Shown here: positions 7,226-61,658 of the stretch, piece after piece
How positions within the stretch are numbered: position 1 is the first letter of the stretch
Layout: each line of letters starts with the position of its first letter
Assembly: GCA_965207135.1 (NCBI GenBank)
Contig: OZ242272.1
Location: forward strand, 2,437,336-2,501,335
Reading direction: 5' to 3'
DNA: 64,000 nucleotides
Source: Chloroflexota bacterium
Lineage (GTDB): Bacteria > Chloroflexota > UBA11872 > VXOZ01
Notes under the pieces: generated by a model
Seen by the model: only the letters and a program-made list of their open reading frames with translations
The model's database searches: none
Told to the model about the DNA's origin: nothing
Made by a program: the position numbers and the translations under genes

Positions 7226-8365
7226 TCATCTGTTTCCTCTCTCAGCGGCACGCGCCAAGTGCCCGCGCAGCTCGGCTGCCGCTCGCTCCCAGGTGAAGCC
7301 GGCAGCGCGCTTCATTCCCGCTGCGCCGAGCCGGTCGCGCACGCTATCCTCTGTGGCGAGTTCCACGAGCGCTTTGCCAATAGCTTCTGTATCGGCAGGA
7401 TCCACCAAAATTGCGGCTGCACCCGCAACTTCGGGCAGCGAGGAGGTGTTGCTCGTGACAACCGGTGTCCCACATGCCATGGCTTCGAGAACCGGCAATC
7501 CAAAGCCCTCGTAGAGGCTGGGAAAGACGAACGCGGTCGCCCCTGTATACAAGGCTGCGAGTTCATCGTCGGAATCGACTGTGGTGAGGAAGTGCACGCG
7601 ATCTGCGACATCATACTCCTGCGGAGCATTGAGAATGTCCTCATTGAGCCAGCCTGGGCGCCCTACGTGCACGAGGTGGTGGGGCAACCCGGCCCGTATC
7701 ACAGTGCGCAAAGCCGCAATAATTCGCTTGATGTTCTTCCGCGGTTGTATCGTGCCTACCGAAAGAAAATAGGGGTACGCGATGTCATGTCGCCGGAGCA
7801 CTGCACACCGCGCATCTTGATCGTCGCGGGGGCGAAATGCAGCATCAACGCCACAGTGGAGCACGCTAATGCGCGCCGCCTCCGCATTGTATTCGGCTAC
7901 CAAGTCCCGCTGTGTGGCTTCGGAATCTGCGAGAATCAACTGAGCGCGCGCGATGCTGCGGGGCACCACCGCGTCCAAGTATGCTCGCAGGGAAGTAGGG
8001 TACGAATCGGGAAAGTGTCGATACGAAAGATCGTGAACAGTCATTACCCCGGGCGCACGCCATAGTGGCGGCAAGACGAAGTCCGGGGCATAGAAGACAT
8101 CAACCCCGCCGGCGAGCAGGTCGGCGTAGAGAGGCAGCCGCAAGCGATGCCAGATGCGGGTCAACGTGCGCTCCGAGAGCGGCACGATGCGATACTCGGA
8201 ATTAAGGGTGTAGAGGCGTCGCCACAGGCCTGCGGCAGGTCGCGGCGTTAAGAGTGTGAATTGGTCGGCAGGGCACTGAGCAATTAACGCACTAACCAGC
8301 GACCACGTATACCTGCCAATGCCGGCCGTTTGCGTTGCTGCCGTAAAGTCGATGCCAATTCTCAT
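7226..8365 (-). CDS. Glycosyltransferase family 1 (GT4-like)
   Basis: The 379-aa ORF has an EAMACGTPVVTSNTSSLPEVAG motif. Confidence 0.8.
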   Translation of the reverse strand: MRIGIDFTAATQTAGIGRYTWSLVSALIAQCPADQFTLLTPRPAAGLWRRLYTLNSEYRIVPLSERTLTRIWHRLRLPLYADLLAGGVDVFYAPDFVLPPLWRAPGVMTVHDLSYRHFPDSYPTSLRAYLDAVVPRSIARAQLILADSEATQRDLVAEYNAEAARISVLHCGVDAAFRPRDDQDARCAVLRRHDIAYPYFLSVGTIQPRKNIKRIIAALRTVIRAGLPHHLVHVGRPGWLNEDILNAPQEYDVADRVHFLTTVDSDDELAALYTGATAFVFPSLYEGFGLPVLEAMACGTPVVTSNTSSLPEVAGAAAILVDPADTEAIGKALVELATEDSVRDRLGAAGMKRAAGFTWERAAAELRGHLARAAERGNR

Positions 8366-49199: not shown

Positions 49200-50500
49200 G
49201 CATTGCAGTCTTTGGCAGCGTGATCGGTGCGGCCGCGTTGCTCTGGATTCTCTGGCCGCTCGTGCGGCGCAACGGTTTCTCCACGTCGTCCCGCGAAGAG
49301 AGCATCCGCGACGACCTTGCCGAACGCACGCTGTTGCTCTATCAAGAGCTCGAGGAAATAGACCTGGAGCACGAGCAAGGCGACCTCACCGCGGACGAAT
49401 ACGCGAGTTTGCGCGAGGCACAGAAGCAGCGTGTGCTTGCACTCCTCGAGTCCCGCCAGCGGGAATCAGAAGCGCTTAGCAGCACCGCCGCCAGCAGCGA
49501 TCCCGATGCTATGAGCGACGCGATTGAACGAGAAATCCTGCGTATTCGCGCGCGGCGCCGGGGACAGCAGGACATCTCTGACGGCTCGCAGCCTAATGAG
49601 CAAGCCCTGTCACCCCTGGGATCACGAAAACTGCGTTGGCTGTGGCTTGGTGTGCCCGCCGCCCTCGTGCTGCTTGCGTTTGGCGCCATCTTCCAACTCT
49701 ACCAGTCCTCCGCCCGTATCCTCACCGAGCAAACCCCCATCGTTCAGATTGACGTGTCGGAACTCGTGGGCTTTGCCTATGTCGGCCCCGACCACGTGCT
49801 GCTGGCAAGCGCGAGCGGCCTCCGGGAGAGCCGCGACGGCGGACGCACGTGGGTGGAAACCGCTCGGGACGTCGCGCCTGCCGCTATGGCAGTGTCGCCT
49901 GCAGGCGCTGGCTTTGTGTACGTTTTCACAGAGAATAGCGTGCATTCTACGTCAGACGCCGGACAGACCTGGCAGGAAGTGCAGGGCACGCTGCCGGGCA
50001 CGGACATCCTCGCTGCGGCAGTAGACCCATTCGCGCCGACCCAACTCTACGCGAGTTTTGCCGAGACCGGGCTGCACCGCTCGCGCGATGGCGGCGCCAC
50101 CTGGGAACCGGTGCCCACGCCTGATGACGAGACGATTGTGGCAATCCTGGTTGGCGACGTGCCGCCGCTGGTCTTTATTGCGCGGGAATCGGGTAGAGTG
50201 CAAGTGAGCAGCGACGAGGGTGAAACGTGGGCAGCCGCCAGCGGCGCCGTCACTATGGCGCTGCGCGGGCCGGTGCGCGCGCTGTCCGGCGCAGCGGACG
50301 GCAGCATGCTATTCGCGGCGTCCCATACCGGCCTGTACATGTCCACGTCGGCCGGGCAGACGTGGGTAGACCTCCCGTTGCGCAAGCCGCTGACCGCAGT
50401 TACAGTAGACCCAGCTACGCCTCGGACAGTACTGGCCGTCACGGAGTCAGGCGAAGTGTACCGCAGCACCGACGGCGGCATCGCTTGGAGAGACGAGTGA
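49196..50500 (+). CDS. Bitopic membrane protein with a CcmI-like N-terminal module (TM - WPLVRR - coiled G.L...EY..LR....R.L.LL - TM) fused to a periplasmic BNR/Asp-box beta-propeller
   Basis: There are six S/T-x-D-x-G-x-T/A-W Asp-box motifs (SRDGGRTW, SDAGQTW, SRDGGATW, SDEGETW, TSAGQTW, TDGGIAW). It overlaps the ccmH stop by 4 nt. Confidence 0.6.
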   Translation: MSIAVFGSVIGAAALLWILWPLVRRNGFSTSSREESIRDDLAERTLLLYQELEEIDLEHEQGDLTADEYASLREAQKQRVLALLESRQRESEALSSTAASSDPDAMSDAIEREILRIRARRRGQQDISDGSQPNEQALSPLGSRKLRWLWLGVPAALVLLAFGAIFQLYQSSARILTEQTPIVQIDVSELVGFAYVGPDHVLLASASGLRESRDGGRTWVETARDVAPAAMAVSPAGAGFVYVFTENSVHSTSDAGQTWQEVQGTLPGTDILAAAVDPFAPTQLYASFAETGLHRSRDGGATWEPVPTPDDETIVAILVGDVPPLVFIARESGRVQVSSDEGETWAAASGAVTMALRGPVRALSGAADGSMLFAASHTGLYMSTSAGQTWVDLPLRKPLTAVTVDPATPRTVLAVTESGEVYRSTDGGIAWRDE

Positions 50501-52032
50501 TGGCGCGAGCCGCGCATAGGAATTCTGCGAATCGCGTCGACGATACGTCGCTCCAGCCAAGGCGTCCTTCTCTCAACACACCAATTCCGCCACCCCCGTG
50601 TACACGAGACTCTGACATGGCATTCAATTCGTCATCCTCCCCTGGGAGGTCTTCTCTTGACCCAACAAATCCTTCGTTTCCCCAAGGGCGAGAAACTGCT
50701 GGCGCAAATAGTCCGTCATTCCCGCGCAAGCGGGAATCCATCCTTGCCGGCGCTGCCGCAGACTCAGAGTCCAACATCCTCTCGTCCCTGCCGCACTCCT
50801 TGTCTCTCATCCGCCGGGCAGCGTGCCTCTTTCTCGGCATGCTACTGTTTCTCTTCCACTTTGCCGCGGTCGCGGCGGCAGAGAACGGCGTCGTAACCGG
50901 TACGGTCATCAACGGCACTGAGGACGGCAGCGCGCCTGCGGACGTAGCAGTAACCCTCTACTACCTGCGTAACGGCGAGATTGTGGAGCAACGCACGCAG
51001 GTCACTGACGCTGCGGGCGTGTACCGCTTCACTGAGATTTCCACAGAGCCCACGCTGACATTCGTGGTTGTGGCTGCCTACGGGCAAGTGCCCTACAACT
51101 CCCCAGAGCTGCAGTTCGGGGAGAGTACGGAAATCCAGGCGCCGCCGCTCGCGGTGTACGAAGCCAGCCAGGATGCGAGTGTGGTGCGGGTGGTGACCGA
51201 TGTATTATTCGTCGCCCCGGGAGAAGAAGGGAGCGGCATGCTCGGCGTGATCGAGGTTGTGAGGCTCGCGAATGACAGCGATCGCACCTACCTCGCAACC
51301 GGCGTTGCCGGCGGCGGCGCGCCGATGAATGTGCTCCGTTTTGCACTTCCTGCCGACGCAGAGGACCTCACGATGCTCAGCGGTCTCAATTCGCAAAATG
51401 TGGTGCAGATCGATCGCGGCTTCGGCGTCTTCATGCCGCTGCTGCCAGGCGAACGCGAAGTAGCCTTCGGCTATCAGCTCCCGTACTCCGGCAGCACGCT
51501 GGAGCTCAACAAGCGCACGGTCTATCCCACCGATCATTTCGCCATTCTTGCCCTCGAAGAACATGCGCTGCAATTCAATTCAAGTCAACTTGAAGTGCAT
51601 GCCACGCCAATCGGCGACCGCCGCTACTTGGTGGGCGCCGCAAACTCTCTGACAGCGCGTGCGGACGTAAGCGTGCAAGTCGCAGGCTTGCCTGCGCCCT
51701 CCCTGCAAGTCCGGTTCGAGCGGCTCTTCGCTCGTGTCCGCGCTGCTCAAGCGACTTTCTTCATCCTACTGGGCATTGTTCTGGTCTTGCCCGTCCTCTA
51801 TGCCGTCTATCGCATGCGCGGCGGACTGCGGCGCAGAGTTGCGCGGACCTCCGCGTCCGCTGTCGCCGCGCCAGACGCGCAAGAAGCCCTGCTCCTCGAA
51901 ATAGCCCAACTTGATGATGACTTTGCCGCAGGCGGCTTGGCAGAAGACGAGTACCGGAAATTGCGCGCGGACAAGAAGCAACGCTTGCTTGAACTCTATG
52001 GCGAGCCGGGCAGCGAGGCAGACGATGGGTGA
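50500..52032 (+). CDS. Envelope protein with carboxypeptidase-regulatory-like beta-sandwich domain, C-terminal TM helix and cytoplasmic CcmI-like motif
   Basis: It has VVTGTVINGTEDGSAPADVAVTLYYLRNGEIVEQRTQVTDAAGVYRF and a C-terminal ...TM-RMRGGLRRR...LDDDFAAGGLAEDEYRKLRADKKQRLLEL. The start is uncertain among the ATG at 50500 (ATGA-coupled to the upstream gene), a TTG at 50800 giving a clean signal peptide MSLIRRAACLFLGMLLFLFHFAAVAAA, and an ATG at 50839. Confidence 0.45.
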   Translation: MARAAHRNSANRVDDTSLQPRRPSLNTPIPPPPCTRDSDMAFNSSSSPGRSSLDPTNPSFPQGRETAGANSPSFPRKRESILAGAAADSESNILSSLPHSLSLIRRAACLFLGMLLFLFHFAAVAAAENGVVTGTVINGTEDGSAPADVAVTLYYLRNGEIVEQRTQVTDAAGVYRFTEISTEPTLTFVVVAAYGQVPYNSPELQFGESTEIQAPPLAVYEASQDASVVRVVTDVLFVAPGEEGSGMLGVIEVVRLANDSDRTYLATGVAGGGAPMNVLRFALPADAEDLTMLSGLNSQNVVQIDRGFGVFMPLLPGEREVAFGYQLPYSGSTLELNKRTVYPTDHFAILALEEHALQFNSSQLEVHATPIGDRRYLVGAANSLTARADVSVQVAGLPAPSLQVRFERLFARVRAAQATFFILLGIVLVLPVLYAVYRMRGGLRRRVARTSASAVAAPDAQEALLLEIAQLDDDFAAGGLAEDEYRKLRADKKQRLLELYGEPGSEADDG

Positions 52033-54593: not shown

Positions 54594-54750
54594 CTCTTGC
54601 TTTCAACTAAACGGCATCACGGTCTTTCGCGGCTCGGAAGCAAGACATGCGCGCCGGAGTACTACTTCATCATGTTGGCACCTGTCAGGGTGCGTGTTAT
54701 CCTATAAATACTGAAGTAATGGCGCAATCCAGGAATCCGAGAGAGTTTCA

Positions 54751-56268
54751 ATGACGGAAGACGGGTCATGTACGACGGCACAGACAGAGAATCGAAAGAA
54801 TCAGACGAGTGAAGGTTCTGGAGGGTCCGCCGCCGTAACTACCCTTACGGAATCCGACGCGCGTGCGCGCAGTCTGGCGCTCAATGACCGCGTTCCCGCG
54901 AGCGGGTTGTTTGGCGAGGCGAGCCGGCCCCTTGTGGAAGGCTCCCGCGCCTCTTGGCGCATTGCGCCCGAGCCGTTCCTTATCACTCCCGAGAGCTACG
55001 CGCGTTTGCAGCAATTGGGAGACCGGCTGCTGGCCTTCTATAGCGCCGCAAACCGCCTTTACCGGCGCAGCGTGCGCGGCACAATTCCCTCGTTCTTTCA
55101 CGAGTATCTCGATCGGGGCAAGAGCGAGACCGTAGTCGATTACGGACGCATGAACCGCTTCCGGCGCGACCTGCCCGGCGTGATCCGTCCCGATCTCCTC
55201 CTGACGACCGACGGCGTGAAGGCCGCAGAATTAGATTCCGTACCCGGCGGTATCGGCCTCACCGGCAGCATGCAGCAGCACTACAGCAGCCTGGGTTTCA
55301 CCATGGCAGGCGGCAACAACGGCATGGCTGAAGGCTTTGCCGCCATGATTCGCAGCTACGCTGGGAATGAGGACCCCCAGCTTGCAATTGCGGTTTCAGA
55401 CGAGTCCGCCGACTACCGCCCGGAGATGCAATGGCTTTCCGATCAATTGCGGGAACTGGGCATGAGCAGTGCCTGCGCCAAGCCGGAAGACATTGTCATG
55501 CGCGACGACGGGCTTTATCTGGACGACCGGCCGATTGACACGCTCTATCGCTTCCTAGAGCTCTTCGATCTGAAGAATATCCCAAACTACGATCTGCTGC
55601 TCTACGCCGTGCGCAAGCAACTGGTCGTAATGACGCCGCCGCTCAAAGCATATCTTGAGGAAAAGTTGCTCTTCGGGCTCTTCCATCATCCGGTGTTGGC
55701 TGAATTCTGGGCACAGGAGATGGGGAAAGAGAACGTTGCCGCCCTGCAACGCGTGATTCCCCAGACCTGGATACTGGACCCACGGCCGTTGCCGCCCCAC
55801 GCGGTTGTCCCGGGTCTGGAAGTCGTAAAAAAACCCGTATCGGACTGGAAGCAACTCTTGGGGTTGGGTCAGTCAGAGCGGCGCTTGGTCATCAAGCCTT
55901 CCGGCTACTCTGCCACTGCCTGGGGCAGCCGGGGCGTCACCATCGGCCACGACCATCCAGAAGCGGAGTGGGATGAAGCCGTGCAGACGGCGCTTGACGC
56001 TTTCGAGACGACACCCCACGTCCTACAGAAATTCCACCACGGCAACCGCTACGGCACCCGGTATTACGACTTTGCGCAGGACTCTGTGCGCAAGATGAAC
56101 GGCCGCGTGCGGTTGAGTCCGTATTACTTTGTTGCGAATGACGAGACTACCCTCGCCGGTATTCTTGTCACAATCGTGCCGGCGGACAAGAAACTCATCC
56201 ACGGCATGGTCGACGCCGTGATGGTGCCGGCCGCTGTAAGCGAGAGCGGCGTAAACCTCGACCTTTAA
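54751..56268 (+). CDS. ATP-grasp-fold amidoligase (glutathionylspermidine-synthase / pre-ATP-grasp-like), specificity unknown
   Basis: The 505-aa protein has a large N-terminal domain followed by LVIKPSGYSATAWGSRGVTIG, which resembles the ATP-grasp K-P..G..G.GV phosphate-binding motif. Confidence 0.5.
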   Translation: MTEDGSCTTAQTENRKNQTSEGSGGSAAVTTLTESDARARSLALNDRVPASGLFGEASRPLVEGSRASWRIAPEPFLITPESYARLQQLGDRLLAFYSAANRLYRRSVRGTIPSFFHEYLDRGKSETVVDYGRMNRFRRDLPGVIRPDLLLTTDGVKAAELDSVPGGIGLTGSMQQHYSSLGFTMAGGNNGMAEGFAAMIRSYAGNEDPQLAIAVSDESADYRPEMQWLSDQLRELGMSSACAKPEDIVMRDDGLYLDDRPIDTLYRFLELFDLKNIPNYDLLLYAVRKQLVVMTPPLKAYLEEKLLFGLFHHPVLAEFWAQEMGKENVAALQRVIPQTWILDPRPLPPHAVVPGLEVVKKPVSDWKQLLGLGQSERRLVIKPSGYSATAWGSRGVTIGHDHPEAEWDEAVQTALDAFETTPHVLQKFHHGNRYGTRYYDFAQDSVRKMNGRVRLSPYYFVANDETTLAGILVTIVPADKKLIHGMVDAVMVPAAVSESGVNLDL

Positions 56269-56307
56269 AGCGCTAGCCCTAGGGCAAATGGAGAATAGGG
56301 AACCGGC

Positions 56308-57504
56308 ATGGCAATCTCACAATCTCAAGTGAAACGAGACAAAGAAGAGTGGCAGGAACTCCTTGCGGCTGGCATCAACCGGCCTGAGAAGCTTATTAAC
56401 GAACTTGGCGAGCGGCTTGGTTTGGACGACGAGACTGCCGCCAGCCTGCACAGAAACTTCCCGGTGCGGATTAACCCCTACTACCTTGGCTTGATTGATG
56501 AGGTCAATGATCCCATCTGGCGTCAGGCCATTCCCGATGAGATGGAACTCGACCACAGCGATTCATTCACGACGATGGACCCGCTGGCCGAGGATATGGA
56601 CTCGCCGGTGCCATATCTGACGCACCGGTACCCCGATCGGGTGCTCATGGTCGTGCAGTTGCAGTGCGCCATGTACTGCCGCTTCTGCACGCGCCGCCGC
56701 GAAGTAGGCAGCCGCAATGCCGTCACCAAAGCTGACTGGGACCGGCAGATCCAATATATCGCAGAGAACCCTGAAGTTCGCGACGTTATTATCTCCGGCG
56801 GCGACCCTTTCATGCTGCTCGACCACCAGATCGACTATATTCTCAAGAATCTCCGCGCGATACCGCACATGGAGATCATCCGCCTGGACTCCCGCATGCC
56901 CGTCACCTTGCCCCAACGCGTGACGGAGAACCTCTGCAAAATCATACAGCGCTATCACCCGGTCTACCTGAACACCCACTTCAACCACCCGCGCGAAGTT
57001 ACGCCTGAGTCTTCACGCGCGTGCGAACTCATGAACGATCACGGGGTTCCCGTGGGCAATCAGAGTGTGCTGCTGCGCGGCGTAAACGACAATCCTGAGA
57101 CCATGAAAACCTTGGTCCAAGAACTGCTGAAAATTCGCGTCAAACCCTACTATCTTTACCAGGCCGACCTGGTGACCGGTACCAGCCACTTCCGCACCGC
57201 CGTGGAAAAGGGACTGGAGATTATCAAGGCCATCCAAGGCCACACGAGCGGCATGGCTGTTCCTCACTATGTGATCGACGCGCCTCAGGGCGGCGGCAAG
57301 ATTCCGGTGACGCCCGATTTCATCCAAGAAATCACCGACAATGAAATCGTGCTGAAGAACTACGAAGGCAACGTCTACCGCTATCCCATAGACGCGGAAG
57401 TGCCGAACGCCCAGGAAACGAAGCTGTCCCAAGCGCACACCAATGGCAAGGGCAACGGCGATCTCGTCGAAGACGGCAGCGCCGCAGGTACAGATGCAAG
57501 TTAG
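56308..57504 (+). CDS. kamA: KamA-family radical SAM L-lysine 2,3-aminomutase
   Basis: It has the CAMYCRFC (CxxxCxxC) cluster. Both substrate-lysine-binding Asp residues are conserved (YQADL and VIDAPQGGGK), which argues against a glutamate 2,3-aminomutase. It also has a PLP-Lys region. Confidence 0.85.
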   Translation: MAISQSQVKRDKEEWQELLAAGINRPEKLINELGERLGLDDETAASLHRNFPVRINPYYLGLIDEVNDPIWRQAIPDEMELDHSDSFTTMDPLAEDMDSPVPYLTHRYPDRVLMVVQLQCAMYCRFCTRRREVGSRNAVTKADWDRQIQYIAENPEVRDVIISGGDPFMLLDHQIDYILKNLRAIPHMEIIRLDSRMPVTLPQRVTENLCKIIQRYHPVYLNTHFNHPREVTPESSRACELMNDHGVPVGNQSVLLRGVNDNPETMKTLVQELLKIRVKPYYLYQADLVTGTSHFRTAVEKGLEIIKAIQGHTSGMAVPHYVIDAPQGGGKIPVTPDFIQEITDNEIVLKNYEGNVYRYPIDAEVPNAQETKLSQAHTNGKGNGDLVEDGSAAGTDAS

Positions 57505-57571
57505 TGGTTGTCTGCGTGGCAGTAGGTGCTTGCGACAACTGTCCTGAACCCTCGACAGAGAAACCTCCCCT

Positions 57572-58621
57572 TTGAAGGCCCTACTCCGCATTGCCGCCGT
57601 CGGACTAGAACACGACGAGATCTACCGTGTGCTCGACCGGCTGCGCCATCATGAAGAAGCCACCCTGGCGGCCATCGCTGAACGCAGCGGACGTCTGCGC
57701 ATGGCTGCGGCAGGCCGCTATTGCGTACCCGTCTTTCCGCGCCTGGCGCCGCTCTTGGATAAGACCGACGTAGACGCCGTGCTCGTTGCCACGGCGAACG
57801 GCGACAAGGCGGCCGCCGTCCAGGAAGCCTTGCACGCAGGCAAGCACGTCATCGCCCATGCCCCGCTCGCAATTACGTTGGAGCAACTTGCTGCGGTGGA
57901 AGAAGCACAGGAAGTCACCAACGCCGCGCTGGTCATGCTGCTGCCGCAGCGCTTCGCGCCGGCCTACGTGCACCTGCGGGACATGGTCGTAAAAGGAGGG
58001 CTTGGCGCCATCAGCCAGGTGGTGATCATAAACTCGCAGAAGGTCGCGGCAACCCCCCGCACCCAGGCGTTCTATGCCACCAAGACGCACGGCGGCGTGC
58101 TGACGACTCTGGCAGTCCACGACATCGACGTGTTGCGCTGGCTGGGCGGAGAAGTGACAGTCGCCTATGCCGCGACCCAATGCCACGGTCTCACCGAGCA
58201 GCCGGACTTCGAAGACGCGGGCTTGGTGCGCTGCGCGCTCGCGGGCGGCGGCGAGGGCATAATTGCGTGCAATTGGCTGGCGCCGGACGGCGGTGCGCCG
58301 TTTCACGAAATCACGGTGATCGGCACCGAAGGCACAGCCTGGGTTCACGGCGGGAAGATGCACGCATTGCGCGGAGACGCCGCAGGACAATTGTCCGACG
58401 GCGCCGATAGTCAGGGCTACTTTGCCACACACAGTGAAGCCGGAAATGCCTTCCCATCGGCCGCCGGTCAAGCCGACCATGACATTGACGCAGCAATGCT
58501 GAACGCCGCACTTTCCGCGCTCGGCGATGCCGACTTGCGCGCAGCGGCCACTACTGATGCCCTCCGCACCACTCGTGCGGCAGTGCAAGCTCAGCACACT
58601 GCCTGGCAGGACGTTGAATAA
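57572..58621 (+). CDS. Gfo/Idh/MocA-like oxidoreductase with a degenerate N-terminal dinucleotide motif
   Basis: It has DAVLVATANGDKAAAVQEALHAGKHVIAHAPLA, the family core (D.V.IATP...H....AL.AGKHVLCEKPLA), but the first strand lacks GxGxxG. Confidence 0.55.
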   Translation: MKALLRIAAVGLEHDEIYRVLDRLRHHEEATLAAIAERSGRLRMAAAGRYCVPVFPRLAPLLDKTDVDAVLVATANGDKAAAVQEALHAGKHVIAHAPLAITLEQLAAVEEAQEVTNAALVMLLPQRFAPAYVHLRDMVVKGGLGAISQVVIINSQKVAATPRTQAFYATKTHGGVLTTLAVHDIDVLRWLGGEVTVAYAATQCHGLTEQPDFEDAGLVRCALAGGGEGIIACNWLAPDGGAPFHEITVIGTEGTAWVHGGKMHALRGDAAGQLSDGADSQGYFATHSEAGNAFPSAAGQADHDIDAAMLNAALSALGDADLRAAATTDALRTTRAAVQAQHTAWQDVE

Positions 58622-58622
58622 C

Positions 58623-59483
58623 GTGCGCGCGTGCGCCTCTGCGACGCCGGATTTTCTCGCAATCGGCCATGCGGCGCGGGACCTGACCCCTGATGGCTGG
58701 CGCTGGGGCGGCACGGTCACCTACGCGGCGCTGCTTGCCCGCGCTTGGGGAGTGTCCGCAGCCGTGCTCACCGCCTTGGCAGCAGCAGACGAGTCCCGCT
58801 ACCAAGAATTTCTCGGTGGTGAAGTCTTCCTGCACGCGCTCCGCGCACCGACCACCACGACGTTTGAAAACGTCTATACTGCCGCGGGCCGCCGGCAGCG
58901 TTTGCATGCCCAGTCAGCGCGGCTCGAACCGCGCCACGTACCGCAAGCCTGGGGCAGCGCGCCAATTGTGCTAGTGGGCCCGCTGTTGAGCGAGGTCTCT
59001 ACGCAATTCAGCGGTTTCTTTGCCCAAGACACTTTGGTTGGCATGGCCATCCAGGGGCGCTTGCGCAGTCACCGCCAGGGGAGCATCTATGCGCGCCGCT
59101 GGCACCTTGCCCCGCAGGAGTTTGCGGCCTATGACGTGCTCTTCTTTTCGGAAGAAGACGTTCAGGGCAGCGCCGCGCTTGCCGAGAGATACGCAGCACT
59201 GGTCCCCTTGGCGGTGATGACACGAGGCAGTGCCGGCGCAACGCTCTTTGCACACGGCCGCGTTACGCAACATCCTGCCTTTGCGTCCCGACCGGTTGAC
59301 ATGACGGGTGCCGGTGATGTCTTTGCCGCCGCGTTCTTGCTCCACTACGCGGAGAATCGCGATCCGGCAGCAGCCTGCCGCTACGCCAACGCCGCCGCGG
59401 CCTGCAGCATCGAGCACGTCGGCGCGAGCGGGATTCCAAATCGCGGGCAGGTGGATGCACGATTGCGCTCCAAGCCTCACTAG
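58623..59483 (+). CDS. PfkB-family (ribokinase-like) carbohydrate/small-molecule kinase
   Basis: The GTG start lies 2 nt after the upstream stop and gives VRACASATPDFLAIGHAARD. The DMTGAGDVFAAAFL motif matches the DTxGAGD catalytic signature. Confidence 0.7.
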   Translation: MRACASATPDFLAIGHAARDLTPDGWRWGGTVTYAALLARAWGVSAAVLTALAAADESRYQEFLGGEVFLHALRAPTTTTFENVYTAAGRRQRLHAQSARLEPRHVPQAWGSAPIVLVGPLLSEVSTQFSGFFAQDTLVGMAIQGRLRSHRQGSIYARRWHLAPQEFAAYDVLFFSEEDVQGSAALAERYAALVPLAVMTRGSAGATLFAHGRVTQHPAFASRPVDMTGAGDVFAAAFLLHYAENRDPAAACRYANAAAACSIEHVGASGIPNRGQVDARLRSKPH

Positions 59484-59510: not shown

Positions 59511-59688
59511 CCAGTTAGTTGCAGGAACTCCATCCACGCTAGCCGACTAGGACTCTCTGGAGACCTTCACCAAGCCCTGCTATGTGTAGAGTCTCGCACC
59601 GATTGGCGAGACAAGCCTCTGCGCGTTGTCACTCTCTACCCTCTCTCGAGAGAAGACCTTGCATAACCCTTGCCGGAGTGAGAAAGTC

Positions 59689-59942
59689 CCCTCTCCCTTG
59701 AGGGAGAGGGCCAGGGTGAGGGTGGATCCCTGTCCTGTATTCCTAACGAACATGGTGCGACCGGCGCACAACCGCAGCGCCACTCTTGCGCAGGTTGCAA
59801 ACCTACGCTACCGAAAATAGCAGTAAAGTAGACATGTATGAGTGAAGGCTCTCCTGGAAAACCGTTAAAGAACTTACCACCTGACCATTGACGTAGCCAC
59901 TCTCATCGCGCTCGTTGTTTCTTTTCCCCTCTCCCTCGAGGG
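59689..59942 (+). repeat. Copy A of a ~245-bp tandem repeat (pseudo-5' region of rqcH), truncated by the IS481 insertion and starting with the palindrome CCCTCTCCC-TTGA-GGGAGAGGG
   Basis: By-eye alignment shows high similarity to 61208-61450 and 61451-61658. Confidence 0.7.
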
Positions 59943-61207
59943 TGTATAGACCGGGTTGATGGGTAACACATGTTCGGGTTGATGGGTTACACCTAAAGGC
60001 ATGGGAAGTCTTGCAATAGGAGGATGACCATGCCGTGGAAGGTGGAAACGCTTATGTCTGCCCGGGAAGAGTTTATTGCCTTGGCCTCTAGTGGCGCAGT
60101 GAGCATGAGCGAATTGTGTGGTCGGTTCAGCATCAGCCGCAAGACCGGCTACAAGTGGTTGCGGCGGTATGCGTCGGGGGGAGCGCAGAACCTGCGTGAC
60201 CGTTCGCACCGTACGCACAGCTGTCCGCACCGGACAGACCCGGAGCTGGAAGAGAGGATCATCGCGCTGCGCCTGGCGCATCCTACGAAGGGCGCGCATG
60301 TGCTGCACAGGCTGCTGCAAGACCAAGGCTGCACGGACGTGCCGGCCAAGAGCACGATCCAGGCCATTCTCAAGCGCCATGGGCTTATCGATCCCGTGGA
60401 GAGCACCAAGCACACACCCCACGTGCGTTTCGAACACCCTGAGCCCAACGCACTGTGGCAAATGGACTTCAAGGGGCACTTCAGCATGCAGCACGACCGC
60501 TGCCATCCGCTCACCCTCCTGGATGATCATTCCCGCTTCAACCTCGCCCTACAAGCCTGTGCCAACGAACGCGGCGAGACAGTCCAAGACCGCCTCACCA
60601 CTGTCTTTCGCCGCTACGGCCTGCCCCAGGCCATGCTCATGGATAACGGCTCCCCCTGGGGCAACGACAGCGGCCAGCCCTTCACGCCCCCCACCATCTG
60701 GCTCATGCAGTTGGGCATCGGCATCCGGCACAGCCGACCCTATCATCCCCAGACACTCGGCAAACTCGAACGCTTCCACCGCTCGCTCAAGAGCGAACTG
60801 CTGCAAAACCGCACCTTCACCGACCTGGACCACTGCCAGCTTGCCTTCAACACCTGGCGTGACTTCTACAACCTGGAACGTCCCCATCATGCCCTCGACC
60901 TGGACACCCCCATCACCAGATACACCCCCAGTGACCGCTCCTTCCCCGCAACCTTGCCTGCCCTCGACTACGGCCCTGACGACCACGTGCGCAGCGTCGA
61001 TGTCAACGGTCGCATCTCCTTCCAGGGCAAAACCCTCCCTATGGGTAAGGCCTTTCGGCATAAGCAGGTCGCGCTCCGCCCCACCCAAACCGACGGCGTC
61101 TGGAACGTGCACTTCTCAATACAACGCATCAAAACCATAGACCTCAGAGAACAACATGTGTAACCTATCAACCCGAACACCTGTTACCTATCAGCCCAGT
61201 CTGTACA
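59943..61207 (+). mobile_element. IS481-family insertion sequence, about 1265 bp, with about 50-bp imperfect terminal inverted repeats
   Basis: The left end reads TGTATAGACCGGGTTGATGGGTAACACATGTTCGGGTTGATGGGTTACAC. The reverse complement of the right end reads TGTACAGACTGGGCTGATAGGTAACAGGTGTTCGGGTTGATAGGTTACAC. It contains a single transposase ORF whose stop lies inside the right IR. Confidence 0.8.
60024..61163 (+). CDS. IS481-family transposase (N-terminal HTH plus rve/DDE integrase core)
   Basis: The 379-aa protein has an HTH (SISRKTGYKWLRRY), DDE-type core residues (WQMDFKG...LMDNGSPW...HPQTLGKLERFHRSLK), and a GGAGGA RBS. Confidence 0.85.
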   Translation: MTMPWKVETLMSAREEFIALASSGAVSMSELCGRFSISRKTGYKWLRRYASGGAQNLRDRSHRTHSCPHRTDPELEERIIALRLAHPTKGAHVLHRLLQDQGCTDVPAKSTIQAILKRHGLIDPVESTKHTPHVRFEHPEPNALWQMDFKGHFSMQHDRCHPLTLLDDHSRFNLALQACANERGETVQDRLTTVFRRYGLPQAMLMDNGSPWGNDSGQPFTPPTIWLMQLGIGIRHSRPYHPQTLGKLERFHRSLKSELLQNRTFTDLDHCQLAFNTWRDFYNLERPHHALDLDTPITRYTPSDRSFPATLPALDYGPDDHVRSVDVNGRISFQGKTLPMGKAFRHKQVALRPTQTDGVWNVHFSIQRIKTIDLREQHV

Positions 61208-61450
61208 ACGGGTGAGGGCTAGGGTGAGGGTGAATCTTTGTCCTGTATCCCTAACGAACATGTTGCGACCGGCGCACAACCGCAGCGCCACTCTTGCGCA
61301 GGTTGCAAACCTACGCTACCGAAAATGGCAGTAAAGTAGACATGTATGAGTGAAGGCTCTCCTGGAAGACCACGGAAGAGCCAACCACTTGACCATTGAC
61401 GTGGCCACTCTCATCGCGCTCGTTGTTTCTTTTCCTCTCTCCCTCGAGGG
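61208..61450 (+). repeat. Copy B of the ~245-bp tandem repeat, retaining a TTG start plus 11 rqcH-like codons (TIDVATLIAL) and ending with the CTCTCCCTCGAGGGAGAG palindrome
   Basis: By-eye alignment to copies A and C. Confidence 0.7.
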
Positions 61451-61658
61451 AGAGGGCCAGGGTGAGGGTGAATCTTTGCTCTGTATCCCCACGAACATGG
61501 TGCGACCGGCGCACAACCGCAGCACCACTCTTGCGCAGGTTGCAAACCTGCGCTACAGAGAATAGCAGTAGAATAGATATGTATGGATGGAGACTCTACA
61601 GGAACGCCATAGAAGGACTCACCGCTTGACCATCGACGTAGCCACTCTCATCGCGCTC
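61451..61658 (+). repeat. Copy C of the repeat, which is the authentic promoter/5'UTR/first codons of rqcH
   Basis: It runs continuously into the intact rqcH ORF. Confidence 0.65.

Follow-up and report, generated by a model that had tools for sequence, protein, structure and literature searches.

To our knowledge, only a few fates of beta-lysine have been described: it is acetylated to give an osmolyte, used to modify EF-P, fermented, or built into NRPS antibiotics. Two described systems come closest to the locus presented here. The first is AblA/AblB, which produces the osmolyte N-epsilon-acetyl-beta-lysine with two genes, one for making beta-lysine and one for derivatising it. Our locus follows this scheme and has an aminomutase closest to AblA, but the partner enzyme is an ATP-grasp ligase rather than a GNAT acetyltransferase, and no conserved GNAT occurs in the loci that we compared. 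The second is EpmA/EpmB. In both cases, a KamA-family enzyme is accompanied by an ATP-dependent one capable in principle of beta-lysyl amide formation; however, our ligase is not a LysRS paralog, and efp is not found nearby in any locus.

The ligase itself has its own set of described relatives. GspS, trypanothione synthetase, and Escherichia coli YgiC/YjfC are GspS-type ATP-grasp acid-amine ligases with which it shares a fold. It is only 10 to 16% identical to them, lacks the amidase domain, and has an aminomutase as its partner gene instead of a polyamine pathway. Eukaryotic-type glutathione synthetase (GS) and homoglutathione synthetase also have this fold, but sequence similarity is absent, as is a gamma-Glu-Cys ligase gene from every locus compared. 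The fungal enzyme Cp1B (PDB 9CJN), the ligase in the E-64 pathway, is 15% identical, has no aminomutase partner, and acts on a different acid, epoxysuccinate (PMC12568646).

Organization of the locus

The window (the whole 64-kb stretch of Chloroflexota DNA that was analysed) carries the following features at the locus:

54673..54722, + strand, promoter-like block (consensus scan and conservation)
54751-56268, + strand, ligase gene, 505 aa (ORF list)
56308..57504, + strand, KamA gene, 398 aa (ORF list); lysine 2,3-aminomutase of the KamA/AblA type, radical SAM and PLP (Pfam, NCBIfam, PDB 2A5H)
57572..58621, + strand, Gfo/Idh/MocA-family oxidoreductase gene, 349 aa (ORF list; Pfam GFO_IDH_MocA and GFO_IDH_MocA_C3)
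58623..59483, + strand, PfkB-family kinase gene, 286 aa from GTG 58623 (58527/58623-59483 in the ORF list; Pfam PF00294)

A first-pass annotation had described these as four same-strand genes with gaps of 39, 67, and 1 nt, directly downstream of a ccm cluster, and this layout is borne out. All ORFs are on the + strand, and CcmF, CcmH, CcmA, CcmB, and CcmC adjoin upstream. The first two gaps separate ligase from KamA and KamA from Gfo. The third is 1 nt if PfkB starts at GTG 58623, right behind the TAA at 58619-58621; relatives align from this GTG onward.

Ahead of the ligase gene, the promoter-like block consists of a −35 element (TTGGCA, 54675-54680), a 17-nt spacer containing TG, and a −10 element (TATCCT, 54698-54703), followed by a conserved 19-nt stretch, ATAAATACTGAAGTAATGG, at 54704-54722. 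When the window is compared with 14 related Chloroflexota loci, nothing else in this intergenic region is conserved, which suggests that the block is a promoter, with a predicted start near 54710. A search of the same upstream region for riboswitches and other RNAs gave no Rfam match at the gathering score. Elsewhere in the window, a second 379-aa ORF (7226-8365) was considered as a further copy of an IS transposase and rejected, the two proteins being unrelated.

The ligase-KamA pair is conserved across phyla

The ligase gene is followed by KamA, in the same order and on the same strand, in all 14 complete close relatives among the Chloroflexota, in both Bacillota (Limnochordia) loci, and in all six complete Nitrospiraceae loci. 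Manganitrophaceae also carry the pair in this arrangement. Among metagenome and look-up loci, we counted as informative those with at least 1800 nt of sequence downstream of the ligase; 29 of these 57 contain the pair, always with the same order and strand. KamA was co-directional with the ligase in 39 of 39 cases, at a median distance of 304 nt. Even divergent pairs (L109 and L121, with KamAs 36 to 41% identical) remain linked, and the link is thus an old one. The arrangement exceeds chance. The neighborhood comparison that the first-pass annotation had proposed therefore shows the ligase-KamA pair to be kept across Chloroflexota, Nitrospirota, and Bacillota, and the literature that we searched yields no account of the pairing, in line with the earlier view that the combination is undescribed. 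The compared loci share no conserved partner of the known kinds, whether GNAT (AblB), efp, or NRPS.

The same does not hold for the four genes as a unit, which the first-pass annotation had proposed as a candidate operon. Gfo lies downstream of KamA, and all four genes occur together, only in one narrow Chloroflexota clade (L001-L014 and L056), with PfkB accompanying Gfo in 14 of 14 close loci. In the other lineages compared, neither Gfo nor PfkB sits beside the pair, and the downstream gene is a dCTP deaminase or an amidohydrolase. Gfo homologs are at least 56% identical within the clade and at most 35% identical outside it. As anticipated in the first-pass annotation, the Rossmann motif of Gfo appears degenerate: GFO_IDH_MocA aligns only from profile position 15, leaving the GxGxxG part outside the match, and the N-terminus reads IAAVGLEHDE (motif region VGLEHD) with no canonical GxGxxG. 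The PfkB protein matches PF00294 with 72.2 bits (cutoff 25.8; E = 5.9e-20) over residues 180-269 only, its C-terminal 90 residues, and has the GAGD catalytic motif (TGAGDVF).

One reading of this region is a four-gene pathway of the Chloroflexota lineage, in which beta-lysine is ligated by an amide or ester bond to a sugar or cyclitol prepared or modified by Gfo and PfkB. The single strand, the short gaps with no + strand terminator predicted in any of them, the lack of a conserved promoter block upstream of Gfo, and the co-occurrence of all four genes in the 14 close relatives speak for it. However, every other ligase-KamA lineage does without Gfo and PfkB, and the entire region, ccm included, is syntenic across the clade anyway. 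Furthermore, inserted ORFs part KamA from Gfo in several relatives (L004, L005, L007, and L056), the clade is the only place with Gfo homologs of at least 56% identity, and Gfo appears to have no canonical dinucleotide-binding motif. Because Gfo and PfkB are restricted in this way, a sugar or cyclitol acceptor is unsupported outside the clade, and we consider the four-gene pathway very unlikely. Gfo and PfkB are probably a functional pair of their own and are most likely a separate, lineage-specific one that lies downstream by chance of location.

Outside the clade of the window, the recurrent third partner is a glutaredoxin and not a sugar enzyme. A CxxC glutaredoxin of ~80 aa lies between ligase and KamA in 18 of the 29 metagenome and look-up pairs. 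Possibly, the ligase works in the manner of glutathione, homoglutathione, or trypanothione synthetase and couples beta-lysine with an acid that contains cysteine, for example gamma-Glu-Cys or glutathione. The outcome would be a new low-molecular-weight thiol, with the operon glutaredoxin as its cognate redoxin. Taken as a whole, we regard this as unlikely. The loci of the window's clade and of Bacillota have no glutaredoxin in the module, nor does the 64-kb window contain one; neither the window nor any of the 136 related loci contains a gshA, gshB, or ybdK homolog. An alternative role for the glutaredoxin would be to assist the radical SAM enzyme, which is oxygen-sensitive, and a thiol substrate has no residue-level support. 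The specific proposal that ligase, glutaredoxin, and KamA supply the synthesis and redox partner of a beta-lysine-based low-molecular-weight thiol or redox-active conjugate in Nitrospirota, Chloroflexota, and some Bacillota is a speculative one, which we likewise doubt. Candidates for such a thiol would be gamma-Glu-Cys-beta-Lys, a homoglutathione analogue, and glutathionyl-beta-lysine, a glutathionylspermidine analogue.

The KamA homolog is of the lysine 2,3-aminomutase type

By its sequence, the KamA homolog is of the lysine 2,3-aminomutase type and thus a putative source of beta-lysine. It matches PDB 2A5H (E = 3e-115), contains the Pfam domains Radical_SAM and LAM_C (70.5 versus a cutoff of 26.7), and scores 326.6 against the KamA subfamily model TIGR00238 (cutoff 199.2). 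The CAMYCRFC motif and both lysine-binding Asp residues reported in the first-pass annotation are present, with the Fe-S cysteines at C120, C124, and C127. Alignment to 2A5H shows that it keeps the equivalents of four lysine 2,3-aminomutase (LAM) residues: the PLP lysine (K337), the two substrate aspartates (D293 and D330), and the carboxylate-binding arginine (R134). The Fe-S cysteines, the PLP lysine, the Arg134 equivalent, and both aspartates are invariant in 56 of 56 ligase-linked KamA homologs, which thus look like enzymes active on lysine.

The best NCBIfam model for the KamA homolog is AblA, at 469.4 bits, which is below the equivalog cutoff of 525.4; the EpmB model gives 261.2 bits and also falls short of its cutoff (369.3). 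For comparison, three full-length KamAs linked to ligases in other lineages score 432 to 564 bits with AblA and 233 to 243 with EpmB, and the short, divergent KamA of L109 scores 253 and 195 bits, respectively. These scores favor the earlier assignment as a beta-lysine maker rather than an EpmB. The first-pass annotation had named grouping with EpmB and a nearby epmA/efp pair as the outcome that would tell against it, and we found no efp within 8 to 10 kb in the 136 related loci or in the window itself.

The partner is a predicted ligase without sequence relatives of known function

Structural modelling indicates that the 505-aa protein has an ATP-grasp fold of the eukaryotic-GS/GspS-like kind and belongs to an unannotated family. 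In three-dimensional comparison, this fold is common to GspS, YgiC, trypanothione synthetase, and eukaryotic GS; residues 1-30 are predicted to be disordered. The first-pass annotation had called an ATP-grasp enzyme from a K-P..G..G.GV motif. Structure upholds the call, although no sequence model confirms it. Pfam searches with E values up to 10 returned no family, GspS-type families included, and neither NCBIfam nor PADLOC gave a match. The PDB yielded none, either with phmmer and the single sequence or in a profile search, and curated sequence models for GspS-type, eukaryotic-GS-type, and circularly permuted ATP-grasp families left the protein unmatched. With hhalign, the ligase family had no significant alignment to E. 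coli YgiC (probability 1.1%) or to human GS (probability 0.5%; the human sequence was checked as a 100% match to 2HGS). Some family members are longer, P0198 and P0230 among them, but they carry no extra Pfam domain, and their additional N-termini are only low-complexity or mis-called.

Despite this isolation, the family is strongly conserved, with ~50% identity across phyla and ~45 invariant residues. Charged residues conserved family-wide include R146-P-D148 ... E160-L-D162, K299/K305, K382, and K480/K481. R146, D148, E160, D162, K305, K382, and K480 are at least 97% conserved among 94 family members, and K299 and K481 are invariant in a 73-sequence alignment. The conserved residues between R146 and D162 sit on a predicted beta-hairpin (144-162). 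Compared by eye, these residues resemble two features of GS and GspS, namely the Mg/acyl-phosphate motif RxD...ExN and the lysine motifs for ATP, and R146/D148/E160/D162 may match GS R125/D127/E144/N146. The active-site mapping is by eye only because there is no sequence-level relation to any characterised ligase.

Such very high conservation is frequent among enzymes with macromolecular substrates, and YgiC, one of the closest fold relatives, is annotated in RefSeq as a peptide-spermidine ligase. Both points would fit a ligase that places beta-lysine on a carboxylate or amine of a protein or peptide, an ATP-grasp analogue of EpmA or YgiC/YjfC. We also know of no EF-P modification system in many of the phyla that bear the module, which we count in favor of this protein modification. 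Against it stand the lack of efp at the distances given above, the AblA-like rather than EpmB-like character of this KamA and of the other linked KamAs, and the absence of any conserved candidate target gene in the neighborhood. We consider modification of a protein or peptide quite improbable.

Not all family members have a KamA beside them. Basal clades, with Verrucomicrobiota and Eremiobacterota among them, lack an adjacent KamA, as does a nested subclade linked to LarE/SerA, and the neighbors of such unlinked ligases are ruvA, serA, proA, or a LarE-like PP-loop gene. Comparison of KamA-linked with unlinked ligases gave no convincing specificity-determining position, the only differences being weak ones at M134 and K289. 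The whole family may thus share one reaction that is independent of beta-lysine, provided that the genomes of the unlinked members do not carry KamA at another site. The ligase would then have a housekeeping role, and its adjacency to KamA would reflect co-regulation or a shared theme such as amino-acid or stress metabolism. The many lineages without an adjacent KamA and the missing specificity residues agree with such a role. However, KamA-linked ligases group in one large clade, and order, strand, and short spacing are strictly kept over at least three phyla and in about half of the informative loci, divergent pairs too. Such a pattern would be difficult to account for if ligase and KamA had no direct functional link, and we hold a housekeeping role to be unlikely.

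A proposed beta-lysine conjugate pathway

We give an about even chance to the explanation that the ligase-KamA module makes beta-lysine and joins it, through an ATP-dependent amide bond, into a small-molecule conjugate. The functional unit would be two genes, ligase then KamA, with a glutaredoxin between them in most other lineages, and in the clade of the window a conserved promoter-like site of its own would drive its transcription. L-Lysine would be converted to beta-lysine by KamA. The 505-aa enzyme would activate a carboxylate with ATP as an acyl-phosphate and couple it to an amine; beta-lysine would supply one of these two substrates, and the product would be a small-molecule amide conjugate of beta-lysine. 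The analysis shows the gene order and its conservation, the active-site residues of the lysine aminomutase, and the fold of the ligase; from these we infer an active ligase that uses beta-lysine and releases a small molecule.

The conserved pairing points to an undescribed beta-lysine-containing product. An aminomutase paired with a sequence-orphan ATP-grasp ligase would add a further fate of beta-lysine, and the pairing is present in environmentally important, mostly uncultured groups, for example nitrite-oxidising Nitrospirota and Chloroflexota. With two or three genes, the module is small enough for direct heterologous testing. A new cellular thiol could emerge if the glutaredoxin link reflects chemistry. 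More broadly, the pairing would offer a first functional handle on thousands of 'hypothetical' proteins that have no Pfam or NCBIfam model.

A conserved ligase–aminomutase pair

ORF coordinates bear out the layout that the first-pass annotation had proposed, namely four same-strand genes with gaps of 39, 67 and 1 nt, in order, immediately downstream of a ccm cluster (CcmF, H, A, B and C were found there).

Genes and repeats of the region
54751-56268, + strand: ligase, 505 aa; ORF
56308-57504, + strand: KamA, 398 aa; ORF, KamA-family radical SAM/PLP aminomutase (Pfam and NCBIfam)
57572-58621, + strand: Gfo, 349 aa; ORF, Gfo/Idh/MocA oxidoreductase (Pfam/NCBIfam)
58623-59483, + strand: PfkB, 286 aa counted from the GTG one base past the Gfo stop; ORF, PfkB kinase (Pfam/NCBIfam)
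59687-59942, 61210-61450 and 61433-61658: three copies of a ~230-nt repeat, 85-92% identical, flanking an IS481 transposase

The nearest genome record is an uncultured Chloroflexota MAG, with 96-97% protein identity. Loci holding ligase homologues were gathered from species-representative genomes (50), metagenomes (80) and protein look-ups (6). In the close Chloroflexota clade, every one of the 14 complete loci has KamA 3' of the ligase on the same strand, as do 2/2 Bacillota/Limnochordia loci; KamA also follows on the same strand in six Nitrospiraceae loci and in Manganitrophaceae. Beyond the close clade, 57 metagenome and look-up loci extend far enough downstream to be informative; 29 of them have KamA, and in 18 of these 29 an ~80-aa CxxC glutaredoxin/GST_N protein intervenes between the two genes. 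Across 114 loci outside the close clade, both neighbors are invariably co-directional with the ligase (KamA, 39/39, median 304 nt; glutaredoxin, 30/30, median 41.5 nt).

The first-pass annotation had read all four genes as one candidate operon and suggested a sugar or cyclitol acceptor. Co-conservation holds for ligase and KamA in several phyla, whereas Gfo and PfkB occur downstream of the pair only in the close clade, where the entire region is syntenic, ccm included. Even there, extra ORFs separate KamA from Gfo in four loci (L004, L005, L007 and L056). Gfo homologues share at least 56% identity within the clade and at most 35% outside it. When the window and 14 related loci are compared, the region preceding the ligase is conserved only in a promoter-like block (TTGGCA-17-TATCCT, then another 19 nt); no comparable block was found upstream of Gfo. 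The N-terminal dinucleotide motif of Gfo, which the first-pass annotation had called degenerate, is unaligned in the domain match, and the PfkB match is restricted to the C-terminal 90 residues of the kinase. A four-gene sugar/cyclitol pathway in this lineage has no comparative support and is, in our view, highly improbable. Support is lacking for half of what was first claimed for the four genes.

Genomic surroundings

Within the ccm cluster, a 601-aa ORF without Pfam matches (50227-52032) lies between a BNR-repeat protein and CcmA; in the relative L056, a 530-aa gene, also without Pfam matches, occupies the equivalent position. An IS481-family transposase (60024-61163; domains rve, HTH_32 and LZ_Tnp_IS481) sits just 3' of PfkB. 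This insertion looks specific to the window's genome, because by ORF coordinates PfkB and the NFACT gene are only about 500 nt apart in the closest relative, L001.

Other lineages have neighbors of their own. Some operon glutaredoxins between ligase and KamA (L019, L022, L067 and L075) carry a C-terminal extension ending in acidic-x-P-x-C-(S/N/T)-L, e.g., EFPSCNL or DAPCCSL. Outside the close clade, KamA accompanies the ligase in 39 loci; in 21 of them (including L018-L022, L035, L038, L051 and L099), a dCTP deaminase is encoded directly 3' of KamA, in a 384-aa two-domain or a 183-191-aa form, with no obvious functional link to the pair. Limnochordia/Bacillota-type loci (L016, L017 and L065) have ligase, KamA and a 448-474-aa Amidohydro_1 enzyme in that order on one strand; this dihydroorotase/hydantoinase-like enzyme could act on the ligase product. 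In Nitrospirota-type loci (L018-L020, L022, L035 and L038, plus L064, L104 and others from metagenomes), the ligase is preceded by a divergently transcribed gene on the other strand; its ~510-aa product combines a CxxCxxCC metal-binding domain with a phosphatidylglycerol lysyltransferase C-terminal domain (MprF-like). Such a second lysine-related enzyme may hint at an aminoacylated lipid or polyol, but lineage synteny would account for it just as well.

KamA as a predicted source of beta-lysine

The window KamA aligns with the Clostridium lysine 2,3-aminomutase structure 2A5H (E 3e-115) and conserves the equivalents of D293, D330, the PLP lysine K337 and R134. D293 and D330 are the two aspartates that hold the lysine epsilon-amino group. 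All 56 ligase-adjacent KamA homologues in other loci retain the same four residues. Among NCBIfam models, AblA-type lysine 2,3-aminomutase scores highest (469 bits, under the equivalog cutoff of 525). AblA is also the best model for three full-length KamAs of other lineages (432-564 bits, with EpmB low) and for the short, divergent KamA of L109 (253 bits). As first proposed, KamA should make beta-lysine, a prediction well supported by sequence. Grouping with EpmB beside efp was also looked for: the EpmB model reaches 261 bits, far under AblA, and neither efp nor another target gene lies nearby. We consider protein beta-lysylation very unlikely.

The ligase family

The 505-aa protein had been called an ATP-grasp/GspS-like ligase. 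Sequence models did not bear this out: single-sequence and profile searches returned no match in Pfam (to E 10), NCBIfam, PADLOC or PDB sequences, and profile comparisons with YgiC and human GS were not significant. The predicted fold did, since a confident AlphaFold model from 73 sequences (pLDDT 88.4, pTM 0.89) retrieved eukaryotic GS as the top Foldseek hit over its full length (E 2.6e-17). Membership of the GspS/eukaryotic-GS-like ATP-grasp branch is thus predicted from fold, not sequence. Residues invariant in the family alignment (R146-P-D148, E160-L-D162, K299/K305, K382 and K480/K481) look, by eye, like this branch's motifs for Mg/acyl-phosphate and ATP.

The family is large and strongly conserved. 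It counts more than 7,800 matching proteins, which share about 50% identity across Chloroflexota, Nitrospirota, Bacillota, Latescibacteria, Poribacteria and others. None of them has a Pfam domain on record; few are named by any source, the labels being hypothetical or uncharacterized. The ligase profile matches 1,801 representatives (50%-identity level) at E ≤0.001 and 413 at E ≤1e-30.

In a neighbor-joining tree, nearly all KamA-linked ligases fall in one large clade. Basal clades lack an adjacent KamA (Verrucomicrobiota, often after ruvA; Eremiobacterota; others), as does a nested subclade that adjoins a LarE-like PP-loop gene or sits after serA. There (L052, L054, L078, L079, L082 and L089; also L053, L055, L059 and L060), either a ~280-300-aa PP-loop protein follows the ligase or serA precedes it. 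Pfam assigns the PP-loop protein to NAD_synthase/Asn_synthase; we take it to be LarE-like from its SGGVDS motif. No alignment positions were found that cleanly separate KamA-linked from unlinked ligases. Either KamA lies elsewhere in these genomes, or beta-lysine is not a strict requirement of the conserved chemistry. Because such unlinked clades exist, a ligase role unrelated to beta-lysine is possible, though unlikely.

A candidate beta-lysine conjugation module

We consider it most likely, at roughly even confidence, that KamA would supply beta-lysine and that the ligase would couple it to some partner by ATP-dependent amide formation, yielding a small-molecule conjugate. A narrower reading, and a more novel one, makes the ligase a GS/GspS analogue whose product would be a thiol containing beta-lysine; the operon glutaredoxin would then be the redoxin for that thiol. 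However, no such glutaredoxin occurs in the window's clade, and gshA, gshB and ybdK homologues are absent from every locus collected; we regard this reading as rather doubtful.

The proposed amide-coupling module shares the logic of AblA/AblB and EpmA/EpmB, which make beta-lysine and then attach or derivatize it, but its partner enzyme differs in class from AblB and EpmA and is covered by no sequence model. We found no description of the ligase–KamA pairing in the searched literature. The pair forms a compact, testable module and provides a lead to the function of a large orphan protein family.
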